Position numbers and translations under genes: made by a program. DNA of 64,000 nucleotides from Escherichia phage vB_EcoM_G2540. The stretch lies in sequence record MK327936.1; one strand, given 5' to 3'. The notes under the pieces are model-generated. The model saw only the letters and a program-made list of their open reading frames with translations. It had not been told where the DNA came from and made no database searches. Position 1 is the first letter of the stretch; each line of letters begins with the position of its first letter. Below, in pieces: positions 21,007 through 61,741 of this stretch.

Positions 21007-21873
21007 ATGTTCATTCAAGAACCAAAGAAATTGATTGATACCGGCGAAATTGGTAACGCTTCTACTGGTGATATCTTATTCGACGGTGGTAATAAAATTA
21101 ATAGTGATTTTAACGCAATTTATAATGCGTTTGGCGATCAGCGTAAAATGGCAGTAGCAAATGGCACTGGAGCTGATGGTCAAATTATCCATGCTACTGG
21201 ATATTATCAAAAACACTCTATTGCTGAGTATGCAACTCCAGTAAAAGTTGGCACTAGACATGATATTGATACCTCTACTGTAGGTGTTAAAGTTATCATT
21301 GAAAGAGGAGAACTTGGCGATTGTGTTGAATTCATTAACTCTAATGGATCAATATCAGTTACTAATCCTTTAACGATTCAGGCTATTGATTCAATTAAAG
21401 GTGTTTCAGGTAATTTGGTAGTAACTACTCCATATAGTAAAGTTACTTTACGCTGTATTTCATCTGATAATTCTACATCGGTTTGGAATTATTCTATTGA
21501 AAGCATGTTTGGTCAAAAGGAATCACCGGTTGAAGGTACGTGGAATATTTCTACATCTGGATCAGTTGACATTCCATTGTTTCATCGCACTGAATATAAC
21601 ATGGCTAAATTGTTAGTTACATGCCAGTCAGCAGATGGAAGAAAAATTAAAACAGCAGAAATAAATATTCTTGTGGATATTGTTAATTCAGAGGTCATTT
21701 CTTCTGAATATGCTGTCATGCGAGTTGGGAATGAAACCGAAGAAGACGAAATCGCTAATATTGCATTTAGTATTAAAGAAAATTATGTAACGGCGACTAT
21801 AAGTTCTTCAACTGTCGGTATGAGAGCAGCAGTTAAAGTTATCGCTACGCAGAAAATCGGGGTGGCTCAATAA
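21007..21873 (+). CDS. 9: gp9 baseplate wedge, long tail fiber connector
   Basis: 288 aa; matches T4 gp9. Confidence 0.92.
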   Translation: MFIQEPKKLIDTGEIGNASTGDILFDGGNKINSDFNAIYNAFGDQRKMAVANGTGADGQIIHATGYYQKHSIAEYATPVKVGTRHDIDTSTVGVKVIIERGELGDCVEFINSNGSISVTNPLTIQAIDSIKGVSGNLVVTTPYSKVTLRCISSDNSTSVWNYSIESMFGQKESPVEGTWNISTSGSVDIPLFHRTEYNMAKLLVTCQSADGRKIKTAEINILVDIVNSEVISSEYAVMRVGNETEEDEIANIAFSIKENYVTATISSSTVGMRAAVKVIATQKIGVAQ

Positions 21874-23678
21874 TGAAACAAAATATTAATATCGGTAATG
21901 TTGTAGATGATGGTACCGGTGACTACCTGCGTAAAGGTGGTATAAAAATAAATGAAAACTTTGATGAGCTTTATTACGAGCTTGGTGACGGTGATGTTCC
22001 ATATTCAGCTGGTGCCTGGAAAACTTATAATGCTTCATCAGGACAAACATTAACAGCAGAATGGGGAAAATCATATGCCATTAACACTTCATCTGGAAGA
22101 GTAACCCTACAACTTCCTAAAGGAACCGTTAATGATTATAATAAAGTAATTAAAGCTAGGGATGTATTTGCAACATGGAATGTTAATCCAGTTACTCTAG
22201 TAGCCGCTTCTGGTGATACTATTAAAGGATCATCGTCATCAGTTGAAATTAATGTTCAATTTAGCGATTTAGAATTAGTTTATTGTGCTCCAGGACGTTG
22301 GGAATATGTCAAAAACAAACAAATTGACAAAATTATTAGTTCAGATATTAGTAATGTAGCACGTAAAGAATTTTTAGTCGAAGTTCAAGGACAAACAGAC
22401 TTTTTAGATGTTTTCCGTGGAACTAGCTATAATGTTAATAACATCCGAGTAAAACACCGCGGTAATGAATTATATTATGGCGATGTATTTAGTGAAAACA
22501 GTGACTTTGGCTCTCCTGGGGAAAATGAAGGAGAATTGATTCCTCTTGATGGATTTAATATTAGGTTAAGACAGCCTTGTAATATTGGTGACACTGTTCA
22601 AATTGAAACATTTATGGATGGTGTATCACAATGGAGAAGTTCATATACAAGACGCCAAATAAAAGTATTAGATTCAAAATTAACGTCAAAAACTTCTTTA
22701 GAAGGAAGTATTTACGTTACTGATTTATCAACAATGAAATCAATTCCATTCTCTGCATTTGGATTAATTCCTGGAGAACCTATTAATCCTAATTCTCTTG
22801 AAGTTCGTTTTAATGGAATTTTACAACAACAAGCTGGAACAGCCGGATATCCTCTGTTTTTGTGTGAAGGTGCTAATTCAGATACGCAAGCAGGATGTAT
22901 ATCTCTTGGTGGTGAATGGAAAGAATCGAATACAGATTATTCTATAGAATATGAAGATGGAAAACCTGTCAGTCTTTTATTTGATAGAAAATTTGAATCT
23001 GGCGATATAATCGTTATAACATGGTTCAATAATGATTTAGGAACTCTTTTAGAAAAAGATGACATTATTGAATTAACTGATGACCGTTATGTTAGTAAAG
23101 GATCATCTACTGAAGTTACTGGTGATGTAGCCTTAACAGATTTTGATAAAATCGGTTGGCCAAATGTTGAAAAAGTTGATTCTTATACTAGAACGTATAA
23201 TTCAATATCATCTATTTTCGACAGCATTTATCCTGTTGGTTCAATTTATGAAAATGCTATAAATCCAAATAATCCAGTGACTTATATGGGATTTGGTTCA
23301 TGGAAATTATTTGGTAAAGGGCAGGTTTTAGTAGGATGGAATGATGATGTTACAGATCCAAACTTTGCATTAAACAATAATGATTTAGATTCTAGCGGAA
23401 ATCCTTCACATACCGCCGGTGGAACAGTTGGTACAACATCAGTAACGCTTGAAAACGCAAATCTTCCTGCGACTAAAACTGATGAAAGAGTTTTAATTGA
23501 AGACGAAAATGGATCAGTTATTATTGGAGGATGTCAATATGACCCAGACGAAACTGGTCCTATATATACAAAATATCGTGAAGACTACGCAACAACAAAC
23601 TCTTCACATACTCCTCCTACTAATATTAGTAATATTCAACCGTCTATTACTGTATACCGTTGGATAAGGATTGCATAA
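21873..23678 (+). CDS. 10: gp10 baseplate wedge / short tail fiber attachment
   Basis: 601 aa; stop overlaps the gene 11 start (TAATG). Confidence 0.92.
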
Positions 23679-24392
23679 TGAGTTTACTTAATAATAAAGC
23701 GGGAGTTATTTCCCGCTTAGCAGATTTTCTTGGTTTTAGAACTAAGAAAAATGATATTTCGGTTATGAATAATCAGCCGGTAGGCGCTGTAACAATTTCA
23801 CAAATAGCAAAAGGTTTTTATGACCCAAATGTAGAATCTGCTATCAATGATGTTAGAAATATGGCAGAGCAACAGGTTGGAGCTGTATTAATTTGCTATC
23901 AATGATGTTAGAAATATGGCAGAGCAACAGGTTGGAGCTGTATTAATTAATATAAGCGGCGTATCTCCTACTGGAGTGCAACAAACAGACTATTGGTCAT
24001 TTGAAGGAACTGTTACTGATACTTCAGCCAAACCAGGTGACCCAGTTATTGTTAACATGTTTGGTATTCCAGTTAAAGCTACTAACGGAATGACTTCAAT
24101 TGAATTTACCAGTGCCGTTAGAATAGCTCTACAGGAAATGGTTGCAAAATTTATTGCAATTGATTCATTTGAAGACCATCCTACTATAGGGAATAAAATA
24201 CAAGTTAAGTATTTAGATAACCAAGAACATATCTTAGAGCAATACTCTGATAAAGGAATTACTTTCAAACAAGAAATAATTTCTCCTTCTAAACCTGGAT
24301 ATGGAACTTGGCAATTATTAGGTGCGCAAACTGTCACGTTAGATAGTCACACACAACCTACAGTATTTTATTATTTTGAGAGAATAGCATGA
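23678..24392 (+). pseudogene. 11: Gene 11 (baseplate wedge, STF-binding) disrupted by a perfect 55-bp tandem duplication causing frameshift
   Basis: 55-bp unit tgctatcaatgatgttagaaatatggcagagcaacaggttggagctgtattaatt present twice in tandem (23839-23893, 23894-23948); splits the reading frame into ORFs 23678..23905 and 23916..24392; removing one copy restores a 219-aa gp11-length ORF. Confidence 0.85.
23839..23948 (+). repeat. Perfect 55-bp x 2 tandem direct duplication inside gene 11
   Basis: Character-by-character identical copies, no spacer. Confidence 0.95.
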
Positions 24393-25939
24393 GTAATAAT
24401 ACATATCAGCACGTATCAAATGAATCAAAATATGTTAAATTCGATCCAGTGGGATCGAATTTTCCTGACACTGTTACGACGGTGCAGTCTGCATTATCAA
24501 AAATAAGTAATATCGGCGTAAATGGTATTCCTGATGCAACTATGGAAGTTAAAGGAATAGCAATGATTGCATCAGAGCAAGAGGTTTTAGATGGAACAAA
24601 TAATTCTAAAATCGTTACACCAGCTACATTAGCAACAAGATTATTGTATCCAAATGCTACTGAAACTAAATATGGTTTAACGCGCTATTCAACAAATGAA
24701 GAAATATTAGAAGGCTCAGATAATAATTCATCAATAACACCGCAAAAACTGAAATACCATACTGATGATGTGTTCCAAAATAGATATTCGTCTGAGTCAT
24801 CAAACGGGGTTATTAAAATATCATCTACGCCTGCAGCTTTGGCTGGTGTCGATGATACTACGGCGATGACTCCGCTGAAAACCCAAAAACTTGCAATAAA
24901 ATTAATTTCACAAATAGCTCCTTCAGAAGACACTGCAACAGAATCTGTGAGAGGAGTAGTTCAATTATCTACTGTTGCACAAACTCGTCAAGGAACTCTC
25001 CGCGAAGGATATGCAATTTCCCCGTATACCTTTATGAATTCTGTTGCAACACAAGAATATAAGGGTGTTATACGTCTAGGAACACAAGCAGAAATTAATA
25101 ATAATTTGGGGGATGTTGCAGTAACAGGTGAAACACTAAATGGTCGAGGAGCTACCGGTTCTATGCGTGGGGTAGTAAAATTAACGACGCAAGCTGGTAT
25201 TGCTCCTGAAGGTGATAGCTCTGGGGCATTAGCCTGGAACGCAGATGTAATTAATACTCGTGGTGGACAAACTATTAATGGTTCTTTAAATTTAGATCAT
25301 CTCACAGCAAATGGAATTTGGTCGCGCGGCGGAATGTGGAAAAATGGCGATCAACCTGTTGCCACTGAAAGATATGCGTCCGAAAGGGTTCCGGTTGGAA
25401 CTATTATGATGTTTGCGGGTGATTCAGCACCTCCAGGTTGGATTATGTGTCATGGTGGAACTGTGTCAGGAGATCAATATCCTGATTATAGAAACACAGT
25501 TGGAACAAGATTTGGTGGGGATTGGAATAATCCAGGGATTCCTGATATGCGAGGTCTTTTCGTCAGAGGAGCGGGCACAGGTGGTCATATTTTAAATCAA
25601 CGAGGACAAGATGGTTATGGGAAGGATAGACTTGGTGTAGGATGTGATGGAATGCATGTTGGTGGTGTTCAAGCGCAACAAATGTCATACCATAAACACG
25701 CTGGTGGTTGGGGAGAATATAACAGAAGTGAAGGTCCATTTGGCGCGTCTGTTTATCAAGGATATCTTGGAACTAGAAAATATGCCGACTGGGATAACGC
25801 TTCATACTTCACCAATGATGGATTTGAATTAGGTGGACCGAGAGATGCCCTTGGTACACTTAATCGTGAAGGATTAATTGGTTATGAAACTAGACCATGG
25901 AATATATCATTAAACTATATTATTAAAATTCATTACTAA
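24389..25939 (+). CDS. 12: gp12 short tail fiber
   Basis: 516 aa; matches T4 gp12 in size and position. Confidence 0.92.
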
Positions 25940-40328: not shown

Positions 40329-40343
40329 TCTTTGACGATTTAA

Positions 40344-40384
40344 GGGACCTTCGGGTCCCTTTAGTTGTTTTTATGGTATAAATA
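40344..40384 (+). promoter_or_regulatory. Terminator hairpin after gene 23 (GGGACCTTCGGGTCCC + T-run) followed by late promoter TATAAATA (40377-40384) for gene 24
   Basis: Perfect 6-bp GC stem with TTCG loop then T-rich tract; exact TATAAATA 27 nt upstream of the gene 24 ATG. Confidence 0.7.
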
Positions 40385-40411
40385 AATCATATAAACCAAA
40401 AGGAAAGCGCA

Positions 40412-55885: not shown

Positions 55886-57943
55886 CTACATTTTGAACTT
55901 TTTAGACATTCCGTTGATGTTAACCAAAGAAGCTAATATTTGAGAAACTTCGTTTTCCTCTTCTTTTGATTCTTCTACAAGGAATTGATTAAATCCAGCC
56001 ATTGGACGAACTTCACCAGTTTCCATTAAATGGTCGCCATCATATACTGATTCTTCTAATTGTTCAGAAGGAGGAACGATTGTACCTTCGATTAGATACT
56101 TGTTATAAGCAGTTTCTTTCATAAAGTACGTACTTACTTTATTAATCTTTAGTAAAATTCCGCGCGGTAGAATAACTTCAGCTTCTGATGGAAATCCTGA
56201 TAAATGACCTGGAACGATAACTTTGATTCGCTCAGCTCCTTTAATTACCATACCCACGCTAGTTTCAGCATCTTCATTAGCATATGTAGAATGACTACCC
56301 ATATGCATCAAATCTTCTGCATCAACGGAATCTTCTCCTTCACCAGAAAATACTGCGCCGGAATCATCTAGAGCCATATAGTTTTTACCATGCTCACCGA
56401 AGATATTTGGTTTAAGCGATGTGGATACGAAGTTCTTGAAATAAAACATTTTATTTTCAATGTTATGACGCAAAGTTTTAAAGGTAACTTCTTGTCCACG
56501 GTAAAGCGTAGTTCCTGGAGGAAGAACTGAACCTTTAGCGAATGCAGAATCCAACGTCTCGATGTGCTTAATAGCACGTTCCATATATTCTTCACGGGTA
56601 GAATCTGGTTTACCCAAAAGGAACGAGTTCATTTCAACATATGAATCAGCACAATAATCTTCAATTACGTCAGATTCAGCCTGAGTTAATCCTTTTGGAG
56701 TTACTTCGGTGCTTGCGTATTCATACGCCTGGGCGGCAGATTCATTAATCAATTTATAAATGCCATTCATGACGAATTGAATAATAGCTGTCTTTTCATC
56801 TGGCGTGGCTTTAGAACCTTTAACTAAATCATTAATAATTTTCTTAATAACATCAAAGCTATTAGAAATATTAATGTCAGCAAGATCGCTTAAAATTTTA
56901 TCAGTTTTATAATCAAAGAATTCTTTATTCTTTAAATATTCTTGAGAACCTTGATATGTTATATCGCTCTGCAGCTTGATAGATGGATCACGTAAACGCG
57001 CATGGGCCAATGCGATATGATTTCGGAAGTTTTCTAGTTCATAATCGCTAGATTTAAAACGAGAAGCACTCCTCATACCACCAATAGCTCCTTTGCTGAA
57101 GTTTGAACCAATCTGAATAACGCCAGAGTTCATTGGTCCTTCTGCTTTATACACCGGAACTTTAAATTCAAACTCTTGATATTTCTTAGCAGCGAAGCTA
57201 TCACCCTGAAGTGAAGCATCGACAGTAGAATATTGAGCTTGTGCTGCTAATCGACGACTGATTTTAGTTTTCTGAATAACAGCTTGGTCCGTGCGTTTAT
57301 CATTTTCTAAAGCAATAGAAGCAGCAACAGCGACAGCTTTAGGAACAGCATTTCCTGTTTTAACGTCTACATAAACATCACCGACCTTTGATTCAACTTT
57401 TGTGAATAACTCAGTTGAAATAGGAGGTACACCTGGAATGTCTTCTAAATTGGCATTTTTACGGTAAACCATAATATATGCGTACTTTTTATCGTAATCC
57501 CAGATTTCCTTTAAAAGAACATATCGACCTGCTCCTTTAGTACGTACTAAACGGTCAGCAATAACTTGCATTTGACGAGCAGCGCCATTTGTTTTACTCT
57601 TTAGTACGCGAAATAAGCATGCATCAATTTTATACTGTTTCATTGTTTGAAGAGCAGTATCAAAAACAGCATTAATGACGCCAATTGGATTTCCACCCAA
57701 GTTTTTAAGCTTAACTAACGATAATTTCTCGTTGACACCTATCATTACGATATGCATCATTTTATCGCCTGGCTTAACGTTTTTATTCGTATCACCGCCA
57801 GAGGTGTATGTACAAAATCTAAATCCAGGAAGCACGCTTTCTTCACCGGCTTGAATAGCAAAAATTTGTGGTATTTTATGCTTAGGATTTAAGTTAACAA
57901 CCGGCGCCGAAGCGCCGTCAAATAATTCTGTAATAAGTTCCAT
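55886..57943 (-). CDS. Alt-like ADP-ribosyltransferase paralog (second copy, downstream of alt)
   Basis: 685 aa; N-terminal 230 aa closely similar to the adjacent Alt ORF (MELITELFD...CTYTSGGDTN...); C-terminal ART-type R-S-E signature (LYRGQ, FVSTSL, EAEVILPRG). Confidence 0.85.
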   Translation of the reverse strand: MELITELFDGASAPVVNLNPKHKIPQIFAIQAGEESVLPGFRFCTYTSGGDTNKNVKPGDKMMHIVMIGVNEKLSLVKLKNLGGNPIGVINAVFDTALQTMKQYKIDACLFRVLKSKTNGAARQMQVIADRLVRTKGAGRYVLLKEIWDYDKKYAYIMVYRKNANLEDIPGVPPISTELFTKVESKVGDVYVDVKTGNAVPKAVAVAASIALENDKRTDQAVIQKTKISRRLAAQAQYSTVDASLQGDSFAAKKYQEFEFKVPVYKAEGPMNSGVIQIGSNFSKGAIGGMRSASRFKSSDYELENFRNHIALAHARLRDPSIKLQSDITYQGSQEYLKNKEFFDYKTDKILSDLADINISNSFDVIKKIINDLVKGSKATPDEKTAIIQFVMNGIYKLINESAAQAYEYASTEVTPKGLTQAESDVIEDYCADSYVEMNSFLLGKPDSTREEYMERAIKHIETLDSAFAKGSVLPPGTTLYRGQEVTFKTLRHNIENKMFYFKNFVSTSLKPNIFGEHGKNYMALDDSGAVFSGEGEDSVDAEDLMHMGSHSTYANEDAETSVGMVIKGAERIKVIVPGHLSGFPSEAEVILPRGILLKINKVSTYFMKETAYNKYLIEGTIVPPSEQLEESVYDGDHLMETGEVRPMAGFNQFLVEESKEEENEVSQILASLVNINGMSKKFKM

Positions 57944-57946
57944 GAT

Positions 57947-60043
57947 TTATCCTTGAACGAACTTGTAAGGCATGTTTGTAATATCTATGCAAGACGCAAT
58001 AATTCCAAGAGATGATTCTACTTTCTGTTTAACGTTTGATGAAACAAATGATGCAAAGTCAACTCTGTCTTCTATTTCAATATCACCTGTCATTGCAACC
58101 AATTCACCAGTTTCCATTAAATGGTCTCCATCATAGATTACCGATTCGGTGAGCTCTTCCGTGGTCATAACTTCAGCTTGAATGAGTTTTGTATTATTAG
58201 ATGTTGTTCCGTCATTATTAGAAGCATCAGTTATTTTATTAACTTTGACCATCAATCCACGCGGTAGAATAACTTCAGCTTCTGTTGCTATTCCGAGACT
58301 TCCTGGATATACAACATTAACTTTATGAGCTCCATCAATTGCCCATCCTATTTGAACTTTAACGTATTCAGGATTTTCTTTATACGCTCTTATTTCGTTT
58401 GGATTAATAGTTATTCCTTCTTCATTTTTATCAACTGTTAATTCATTGCGAGCTTCTGGTTCTAAAAGACCAATACCAGCATGTGTAATTCCAAAACGTC
58501 CAAAAATGATAGGAGTTAAAGAAGTAGATACAAAATTTCTGAAGTAGAACACTTTATTTTTAACTAACGCTTCATATATAGGAGCAGTCATACTTTGAGC
58601 ACGATAAACTGTAATGCCTTCTGGTATACGGTCACCATTTTCAAAAGCTGAATCTAAGTTATTTATAGCAGATTCAATTTCTTTTTCACTCATTACATCA
58701 TATCGTTCTGGATTGTAACGACCTAAAAGAAGATTATTGATGTCAGTATATCCTGAACCGCAATATTCTCTAATGCCACGCTTTTGTGATGGAGTATATT
58801 TAGAACCATCGCGGGCAATAGTAATATCAATCATTGGACCAGCACCAATTCCAGAAAAACTGTAAATCATTCGTTTGAGGAATTTAGTTTTTGCTGCGTT
58901 CCAGGAATTTTTAGTTATTTCTTCCCAGACTTCATCTGGTTGTCCTTTACGATTTTTATTATGATTAGCAAGCCATTTATCTTTATAATCTTCAAAGAAT
59001 TGATTTACAGCTGCTGCGTATTTCTCTAAACATTTTATTGAAGTAGTTGGTTCATTTTTAATTGCATTAAAAATTACTTCTTTAATTTTTTCTGAAACTT
59101 CACCGACTTGACTCATTGGAAAGAATTTATAATCATAGTGAAGTTCATCTGCCGTTCCTTCAGCAATAATTTTTGCTGCCTTTGTTTTAGAAGCTAATGA
59201 ATTAATTCCAATTTTCATTTCTTCTGCTTCGGGAATTAAAGGTGCAGTAGCTGGTTTATTAAAATTAGCTGCTGTAGATTCATACTTCTGGAATAATTCA
59301 CTTTCAAATCTAGAAGATTCCAATGACTGACTTTGTGCAATTGCTCTACGGGAAATTTTAACTTTAACGATTACGGCTTGGTCAGAACGTTTATCATTTT
59401 CTTGTGCAATTGATGCTGCAATTGCCTCATTTTTAGTTACTTGGGCTCCAGTATCTTTATTGATATAAACATCACCAACCTTCGATTCAACCTTAGTAAA
59501 GAGTTCAGTACTAATTTCTGGAACTCCTGGAATGTCTTCTAGTGATACGTTTTTACGATGTATAAGAATATATGCATACTTTTTATCGTAATCCCAGAGT
59601 TCCTTAAGAAGGACGTATCTGCCACCTGAACGACTACGGATAAGTCTATCAGCAATAAGTTGAATTTGTCGAGCTTGACCGGCGGTTTTAGACTTAAGAA
59701 TGCGTAGCATACATGCATCAATTTTATACTGTTTCATTGTTTGCATTGCTACGGTAAATACTGAATTGATGTAATTAATAGGACTCGGTCCAAGACCCTT
59801 TAATTTAGCAATTGACCCCTTTGCAGTTAATGTAAAAGGAACGATATGCATCATTTTATCGCCCATTTTTAAATCGCGATTAGTATCACCTCCAGATGTA
59901 TAGGTACATAAACGAAAGCCTGGTTGTTCAATTGCATCATCAACATGAACTGAAAAAATTTGTGGTATTTTCTTCTTTGGATTTAAGTTTGTAATCGGAA
60001 GAGTAGTATCTTCGTCAAATAATTCTGTAATGAGTTCCATCAT
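57947..60043 (-). CDS. alt: Alt, capsid-packaged ADP-ribosyltransferase
   Basis: 698 aa; begins MELITELFDEDTTLPITNL; ART R-S-E signature (VYRAQ, FVSTSL, EAEVILPRG). Confidence 0.9.
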   Translation of the reverse strand: MMELITELFDEDTTLPITNLNPKKKIPQIFSVHVDDAIEQPGFRLCTYTSGGDTNRDLKMGDKMMHIVPFTLTAKGSIAKLKGLGPSPINYINSVFTVAMQTMKQYKIDACMLRILKSKTAGQARQIQLIADRLIRSRSGGRYVLLKELWDYDKKYAYILIHRKNVSLEDIPGVPEISTELFTKVESKVGDVYINKDTGAQVTKNEAIAASIAQENDKRSDQAVIVKVKISRRAIAQSQSLESSRFESELFQKYESTAANFNKPATAPLIPEAEEMKIGINSLASKTKAAKIIAEGTADELHYDYKFFPMSQVGEVSEKIKEVIFNAIKNEPTTSIKCLEKYAAAVNQFFEDYKDKWLANHNKNRKGQPDEVWEEITKNSWNAAKTKFLKRMIYSFSGIGAGPMIDITIARDGSKYTPSQKRGIREYCGSGYTDINNLLLGRYNPERYDVMSEKEIESAINNLDSAFENGDRIPEGITVYRAQSMTAPIYEALVKNKVFYFRNFVSTSLTPIIFGRFGITHAGIGLLEPEARNELTVDKNEEGITINPNEIRAYKENPEYVKVQIGWAIDGAHKVNVVYPGSLGIATEAEVILPRGLMVKVNKITDASNNDGTTSNNTKLIQAEVMTTEELTESVIYDGDHLMETGELVAMTGDIEIEDRVDFASFVSSNVKQKVESSLGIIASCIDITNMPYKFVQG

Positions 60044-60095: not shown

Positions 60096-60281
60096 ATAAT
60101 CTATTGGTAAGAGAGTACGATATATTTCAAACTTTGGACCTTTTTCATAGGCATCAAATGTTTCTGTGAATTTATTATAAGCATATGCATCTATAAATTC
60201 AATCATGATTTGTGATACAGAAGTAGAAACATCTCCACCTTCTTTTTGAGCCACGACAATTGTTTCTAAGTAAGCTTTCAT
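60093..60281 (-). CDS. Hypothetical small protein
   Basis: 62 aa ORF, ATGA overlap with gene 30 stop. Confidence 0.5.
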   Translation of the reverse strand: MKAYLETIVVAQKEGGDVSTSVSQIMIEFIDAYAYNKFTETFDAYEKGPKFEIYRTLLPIDY

Positions 60282-61741
60282 AAACCAGTTACCTCATGAA
60301 AATCACCAAATACATCCTCGAATGTATTAGCTTTAGTTTTATCTTCACGTAAACGAATCGCAATCGGAAGAAATAATTTAACGTAATCAGTGCGGCCATC
60401 AGATTTTAACCAACCGTTGCATTCGCACTCTAGAATTTTTCCAATATAATAATTTTGATTTTCCATAATGCGAGTACGATCAAGTTCATGCGATTTTACA
60501 CCGGCTTTATCTTTTAAGCCTGAACCAGCATTTACTTTAATTTTTCCACACTCTGATTCAAGAATGAAACCACCTGCTTTAGTAGGGTCTTTACGGTGAG
60601 GATAAATTCCTACAATTTTTAAATCAACATCAATTACTTCTTTAAATTTATAAAGATTTTTTGAACGAGCATTTTCCCATAATCCATCGATATTTTTGAG
60701 AATAATACCTTCAAGACCTTGGTCAATATACTTTTTGTAAATTACCTTAGCTTCATCTAGGTTATTTACTACTTGGTTTTCAATTAAAATTACTTTATCA
60801 TAGCCTGATGTCATTTGTTCTAGTTTAGAAAAACGTACATCATATTTTAAACGAAATGCTGGAAGACCATATATTTCTACTAATGGAACATAATCCCAGA
60901 CCTGAAACTTCATGCATTGTGCTTCTTTTTCAGAAATGGTTCCCTTTAAAGATTTATTGGCGATGCCATTAGATGCAGTACGTGATTCAGCTACTTCGGC
61001 GAATTCTTTAGCTTTACTAATTTCAGGATAAGCATCAAAAAGAAAATCTAGGCCTTCTGGTTCCTTTTCAACTTGCTCATGGTATACCAATTCGCCATCA
61101 ATTAACACACCTTCTGGATGAATCTGGCGGGCTTCAGCAGTCATTTTGATTAACTCTTCCTTAAGAAGATCTAATCCTAGATATTCATTGCCAGCTCGTG
61201 ATAAAAGACGAACATCATCTAATTCATCACCTCTGACTTCGGCAAAGCACCGAGCTCCATCAGCTTTTAACTGGGCAAAGGCTGGAAATTTGATATTCTT
61301 ATTAATGCCTTTTTCATCATAAGAACTTGCAAGCATTTGAGGTTGTTCAGGAATTAAACCTGGCCAAACTTTGTTCGCAATAGATACTGAAGCGCCACAT
61401 TCAAGGTCTCGCATCATCACTCGACGCAAAACTTCAACATCATCTTTTTTACCATCGGTGATGTATCCAATTAATTCCTCAATCGCCGCATTTCCAGTCA
61501 ATTTCCGAGTAGCTAACGTGAATTCAATGAAGTCAAGCATATCGGTAAGAGTCAACATTCCAAAACTCTGGGTAGCAATACCAGGTTTAGGCCATTTCTT
61601 GATATAATACTGTAACCCACGAGAATAAGTCAGACGATATACTCGTTTAAGCAATTCATTATCTTTATTCTTTTCAAGAATTGCTTGCTTCTGCTTAGTT
61701 GAACCAATAGATGCTATTTCGTTCAGAATTTTAAGAATCAT
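60278..61741 (-). CDS. 30: gp30 ATP-dependent DNA ligase
   Basis: 487 aa; adenylation motif KADGAR (motif I), T4 DNA ligase-like sequence throughout. Confidence 0.95.
   Translation of the reverse strand: MILKILNEIASIGSTKQKQAILEKNKDNELLKRVYRLTYSRGLQYYIKKWPKPGIATQSFGMLTLTDMLDFIEFTLATRKLTGNAAIEELIGYITDGKKDDVEVLRRVMMRDLECGASVSIANKVWPGLIPEQPQMLASSYDEKGINKNIKFPAFAQLKADGARCFAEVRGDELDDVRLLSRAGNEYLGLDLLKEELIKMTAEARQIHPEGVLIDGELVYHEQVEKEPEGLDFLFDAYPEISKAKEFAEVAESRTASNGIANKSLKGTISEKEAQCMKFQVWDYVPLVEIYGLPAFRLKYDVRFSKLEQMTSGYDKVILIENQVVNNLDEAKVIYKKYIDQGLEGIILKNIDGLWENARSKNLYKFKEVIDVDLKIVGIYPHRKDPTKAGGFILESECGKIKVNAGSGLKDKAGVKSHELDRTRIMENQNYYIGKILECECNGWLKSDGRTDYVKLFLPIAIRLREDKTKANTFEDVFGDFHEVTGL

Follow-up and report, generated by a model that had tools for sequence, protein, structure and literature searches.

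The stretch of DNA that was analysed, hereafter the window, comprises 64,000 nucleotides of the record of Escherichia phage vB_EcoM_G2540 (G2540; MK327936, 168,886 bp in full). It includes part of the baseplate module of a T4-like phage, in which gene 11 lies between genes 10 and 12. Both of these neighbours are intact open reading frames on the forward strand, gene 10 (21873-23678) encoding the baseplate wedge and tail pin protein of 601 amino acids and gene 12 (24389-25939) the short tail fibre of 516 amino acids. Gene 11, on the same strand, is deposited in two parts, namely an N-terminal fragment of 75 amino acids at 23678-23905 (QBO63396.1), which aligns with positions 1-84 of the Pfam profile PF08677, and a C-terminal fragment of 158 amino acids at 23916-24392 (QBO63397.1), which aligns with positions 78-252 of the same profile. 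Eight large proteins of the window have exact counterparts in the G2540 record; gp6 is QBO63391.1, whose sequence is found in no other record, gp7 is QBO63392.1 and gp12 is QBO63398.1. A first-pass annotation of this DNA is corrected in one respect: gene 11 begins at the ATG at 23678, which overlaps the stop codon of gene 10 as ATGA, and neither at 23679 nor at the upstream TTG from which the mechanically called ORF begins.

Within gene 11 there is a perfect direct tandem repeat of 55 nt with the unit TGCTATCAATGATGTTAGAAATATGGCAGAGCAACAGGTTGGAGCTGTATTAATT, of which copy 1 occupies 23839-23893 and spans codons 54-72 of gp11, and copy 2, 100% identical to it and likewise on the forward strand, occupies 23894-23948. 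A repeat scan of the window agrees with the earlier report of an identical 55-bp tandem at 23839-23948, and it finds this pair to be both the sole exact tandem duplication of at least 20 nt and the sole exact close repeat of at least 30 nt anywhere in the 64 kb. An origin of the exact 55-nt repeat by chance is out of the question. Where the copies adjoin, at 23893/23894, the sequence reads ...GGAGCTGTATTAATT followed by TGCTATCAATGATGTT..., the bases that meet there being ...GTATTAATT and TGCTATCAA.... The borders of the duplication share 0 nt of microhomology on either side, in that the base before copy 1 is C and the final base of the unit is T, while the unit begins with T and the base after copy 2 is A.

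The effect of the repeat on the reading frame is as first described. The N-terminal fragment consists of gp11 residues 1-72 and an out-of-frame CYQ, after which it stops at the TGA at 23903-23905, giving the terminus AVLICYQ; the next ORF runs from the internal ATG at 23916 to 24392 and its 158 amino acids are gp11 residues 62-219. In other words, the fragments overlap by 11 residues (62-72), and jointly they contain every residue of gp11 and the whole of the Pfam GP11 profile. The expectation that deletion of one copy would give a contiguous gp11 of 219 amino acids was borne out when the join was computed, 23678-23893 joined to 23949-24392 being an ORF of 660 nt and 219 codons for amino acids. 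The repaired protein matches PF08677 (GP11) end to end over residues 1-219 (254.9 bits, E=1e-75) and, over the same residues, chain A of PDB entry 1EL6, which is gp11 of T4 (E=1.4e-98). With one copy removed, therefore, G2540 gp11 is like its T4 counterpart in its length of 219 amino acids, in its full-length match and in its position between genes 10 and 12; no biological difference from T4 is seen in G2540, and the split is confined to the deposited record.

Gene 11 in related genomes and assemblies

A search of related genomes for the same duplication had been proposed as a check, and the duplication was found in none of the collections searched. With the region as query, Megablast returns hundreds of full-length matches from 50,697 phage records, and each of them is 55 nt shorter than the query (1046 bases of the record aligned, in two pieces, to 1101 of the query); a 50-nt query centred on the 23893/23894 junction has no contiguous match in these 50,697 records. 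Moreover, the 31-mer that spans the junction is absent from IMG/VR, from the GTDB genomes and from the JGI metagenomes.

Independent assemblies were located through the identical gene 10 product, and no assembly from G2540's own reads is among them. Ten contigs have a gp10 identical to that of the window, and in each of the ten gp11 is 219 amino acids long. One of these contigs, L008, differs from the window at 13 of ~21,800 positions (99.94% identity over 21.8 kb) and carries a single copy of the 55-mer, and in the multiple alignment of the region (A1) the extra 55 nt are present in the window alone. The repaired gene 11 is identical at 660 of 660 nt to the genes of FL08, e112 and L008. As to the provenance of L008, it is a human-gut metagenome contig (k127_6987, ENA ERZ920786, 165,514 bp), whereas the source of G2540 is German pig manure; the near-identity of the two indicates that near-identical Tequatrovirus genomes circulate widely.

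Compared with FL08, which is the closest record, the 55 bp are the sole net indel across window positions 8266-34264, and gene 11 is the sole large gene that is broken. A generally poor assembly with further frameshifts was considered and rejected, the other gaps relative to FL08 being self-compensating alignment noise in divergent patches. Two further differences from FL08 were observed elsewhere in the window. At 1790-2756 on the reverse strand, which is the one other place in the window where an ORF looks split, overlapping ORFs of 130 and 201 amino acids correspond to what in FL08 is a single CDS of 322 amino acids (60119-61087). Since the phages G2540-3 and G4507 likewise have two ORFs here, the arrangement is natural and no second error of assembly; it is FL08 that deviates at this locus, through a fusion or an indel. 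Secondly, gene 23, for the major capsid protein, and gene 24 are separated in FL08 by a homing-endonuclease gene (L004 40821-41522), which the window lacks at the corresponding place (40339-40397). This difference is the typical variation in presence and absence of mobile elements among T4-like phages.

At the protein level, gp11 falls into a cluster of 143 members, in which both fragments (QBO63396.1 and QBO63397.1) occur on the G2540 contig only; among the members listed, all are of 219 amino acids save these two fragments and one partial entry of 225 amino acids. An exact-product look-up of the 158- and 75-residue fragments in the gene-position index gave no match. These data bear on the suggestion of the first-pass annotation that the locus may be a tolerated split gene with translational restart. 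On such a reading the duplication would be real and its length of 55 nt a coincidence; translation would stop at 23905 and begin anew at the ATG at 23916, and the two gp11 chains so produced (residues 1-72 with CYQ appended, and residues 62-219) would together form a working baseplate pin. The arrangement is not physically absurd, given the 11-residue overlap of the fragments and their joint coverage of the GP11 profile; the first stop and the restart ATG are a mere 10 nt apart, and the phage is viable. However, no Shine-Dalgarno motif precedes the ATG at 23916 (ATCAATGATGTTAGAAATATG), whereas the neighbouring genes have GGAG, AAGGA or GAGAG, and no relative among the cluster members listed has a split gene 11. 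Necessarily, moreover, two-chain gp11 requires a real duplication, contrary to the evidence for an artefact that is given below, and it is unnecessary as an explanation. We regard it as extremely improbable.

Assembly of G2540 and its sibling records

The genomes of the source study that were sequenced on the Illumina platform were prepared as PCR-amplified Nextera libraries and assembled with "SPAdes (3.12.0) ... (55kmer)", and the contigs of T4-like phages were afterwards re-arranged to match published phages (Methods 2.10; Korf et al. 2019, PMC6563267). PacBio and Illumina sequencing were mixed in that study, with the platform not stated per phage, and the coverage of G2540 (MK327936) is given as 536.6x (Table S4 of PMC6563267). 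The length of the repeat in gene 11, at 55 nt, is exactly the k of the assembler. In addition, sibling records from the study start exactly at rIIA and the window is in T4 orientation, as fits a circular assembly that was rotated later.

In this light the 55-bp duplication in MK327936 is almost certainly a finishing artefact, an untrimmed overlap of contig ends from SPAdes at k=55, and no biological feature. The genomes of T4-like phages, being circularly permuted, assemble as a circle, and a circular de Bruijn path is written by SPAdes as a linear contig in which the first k bases (k=55) are repeated as the last k. The original G2540 contig would then have begun with TGCTATCAATGATG... and finished with the identical 55-mer, such that copy 2 would be its 5' start and copy 1 its 3' end. 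On rotation of the contig to the gene order of published phages, an overlap left untrimmed would place the old ends head to tail inside the genome, and 23893/23894 would be the point at which they were concatenated, by chance within gene 11. The actual phage would have one copy of the segment and an ordinary, intact gp11 of 219 amino acids. Rotation without trimming accounts for the exact length of the repeat and the identity of its copies, and also for borders that lack microhomology in a sequence that is clean elsewhere. That trimming was skipped for G2540 in particular is what we infer from these features.

A useful comparison in this regard is the T4-like phage 132, whose overlapping contig end was trimmed before the genome was re-opened (PMC8483715). 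Phage 132 has in common with G2540 the use of SPAdes 3.12.0 at k=55, a circularly permuted T4-like genome and re-opening to the T4 gene order. The difference is that one overlapping end was trimmed for phage 132 and evidently not for G2540, where the overlap appears to survive as an internal tandem duplication.

If trimming was skipped in the pipeline, then 55-nt repeats are predicted at other places in sibling genomes from the same study, and such repeats were found in two of them, G2540-3 and G4507. The genome of G2540-3 (MK327944), which comes from the same sample and starts at rIIA, has one perfect 55-bp tandem duplication in its whole 168.6 kb, at positions 22024-22133 of the L017 locus (about 121623-121732 of MK327944), and this is its only close exact repeat of such size. 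It splits the gene for the Alt ADP-ribosyltransferase into two CDS, G25403_00202 and G25403_00203; with one copy removed, an ORF of 683 amino acids is restored, which aligns over its full length with the Alt protein of the window. Gene 11 of G2540-3 is intact at 660 nt. Each of the two genomes was searched for the other's 55-mer (allowing up to 3 mismatches), with 0 matches, the divergence between G2540 and G2540-3 at these loci being too great. With respect to the Alt proteins themselves, the window contains two adjacent, diverged Alt-like ADP-ribosyltransferase genes on the reverse strand (55886-57943 and 57947-60043, of 685 and 698 amino acids). The single Alt of G2540-3 is 71% identical to the second of these and 41% identical to the first, in place of which G2540-3 has small ORFs.

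In G4507 (MK327946), of which the first 99.8 kb were scanned, gene 5 contains two segments, 177 bp apart, whose identity extends over exactly 55 nt (L022 26784-27015; about 76583-76814 of MK327946). The annotation divides this gene into two CDS with a span of 1905 nt in place of 1728 nt. The window holds the same 55-mer once, together with an intact gp5 of 575 amino acids. The 122 nt between the G4507 copies consist of a poly-T tract and then CAAGCAGAAGACGGCATACGAGAT, CAGCCTCG and GTCTCGTGGGCTCGGAGATGTGTATAAGAGACAG, in that order. Of these, CAAGCAGAAGACGGCATACGAGAT is the Illumina P7 sequence, CAGCCTCG an 8-nt i7 index and GTCTCGTGGGCTCGGAGATGTGTATAAGAGACAG the Nextera Read-2 transposase adapter. 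The presence of an adapter in gene 5 of G4507 agrees with the Nextera libraries of the source paper. In both siblings, as in G2540, an internal exact repeat of 55 nt divides a normally intact gene into two CDS; the genes that are hit are other ones (alt and gene 5), and the copies in G4507 are 122 nt apart rather than in direct tandem as in G2540.

Beyond these records, the T4-like loci that served as controls (L001-L014, ~290 kb in all, from other studies) have neither a close exact repeat of at least 30 nt nor an adapter. PTXU06, a small Dhillonvirus from the same study, has no 55-nt duplication, only natural, imperfect in-frame repeats, which implies that the artefact is not universal in the study. 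The length of PTXU06 is 42,321 bp in Table S4 of PMC6563267 and 45,904 bp in GenBank (MK373789), and some of the genome sizes in that table appear to be shifted between rows.

Several points stand on the other side from an artefact: the join in G2540 is clean, with no adapter sequence to mark a contig end; G2540 itself may have been sequenced by either PacBio or Illumina; PTXU06 lacks the signature; and MiSeq reads of 300 nt would in principle be long enough for the correct assembly of a genuine 55-bp tandem duplication. The principal alternative is a real and recent tandem duplication, produced by replication slippage or illegitimate recombination, that was dominant or had gone to fixation in the G2540 stock, with gene 11 inactivated; this corresponds to the slipped-strand mutation of the first-pass annotation. 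Tandem duplications do arise in T4, and the repeat is part of a deposited sequence with the coverage noted above. Natural tandem duplications in T-even phages are head-to-tail repeats of a short segment, usually with microhomology at the junction. G2540 is like them in having a short segment repeated head to tail, but in a natural duplication there would be no ground for a length identical to the assembler's k, nor for the return of precisely that length at unrelated positions in two siblings, in one of which an adapter lies inside. Furthermore, the borders of the G2540 repeat have no microhomology, and its junction is in no other assembly searched. Gene 11 is essential in T4, and a stock with gene 11 frameshifted should not form plaques on many hosts; G2540 plaques on >25 strains (PMC6563267). 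Taken with the weight of these observations, a real duplication is very unlikely.

Another possibility is an artefact at the level of the reads or the library, such that a PCR or transposase chimera, rather than a contig-end overlap, entered the consensus. The libraries were amplified by PCR, and G4507 indicates that untrimmed adapter reads did enter the assemblies. With 536x coverage, however, a chimera would make up a minor share of the reads, and nothing would set its length at exactly 55 nt; the overlap of k-mers accounts for a perfect repeat of this length and for its appearance in siblings too. Such an origin has a vanishingly small probability. The contig-end overlap is accordingly the reading that we retain. 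Of the three options that the first-pass annotation left side by side, the artefact is upheld by the identity of repeat length and k, by the signature in the siblings and by a junction that is unique to this record, while neither the slipped-strand mutation nor the tolerated split gene finds support.

Meaning for public data

Overlaps of contig ends that were left untrimmed have evidently produced spurious split genes or pseudogenes in at least three GenBank records from one study. Those affected are MK327936, in which gene 11 is split, MK327944, in which alt is split, and MK327946, in which gene 5 is split and has an Illumina adapter inside it. Truncated proteins that derive from such splits, for example QBO63396.1 and QBO63397.1, are now in the protein databases. 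A simple screen of re-opened phage genomes for exact direct repeats of the same size as a common assembler k (21, 33, 55, 77, 99 or 127) would prevent features of this kind from being misread as frameshifts, pseudogenes or recoding sites. For the biology of the phage itself the significance is slight, in that gene 11 of G2540 is an ordinary gene 11, and the value of the finding is as a flag of data quality.
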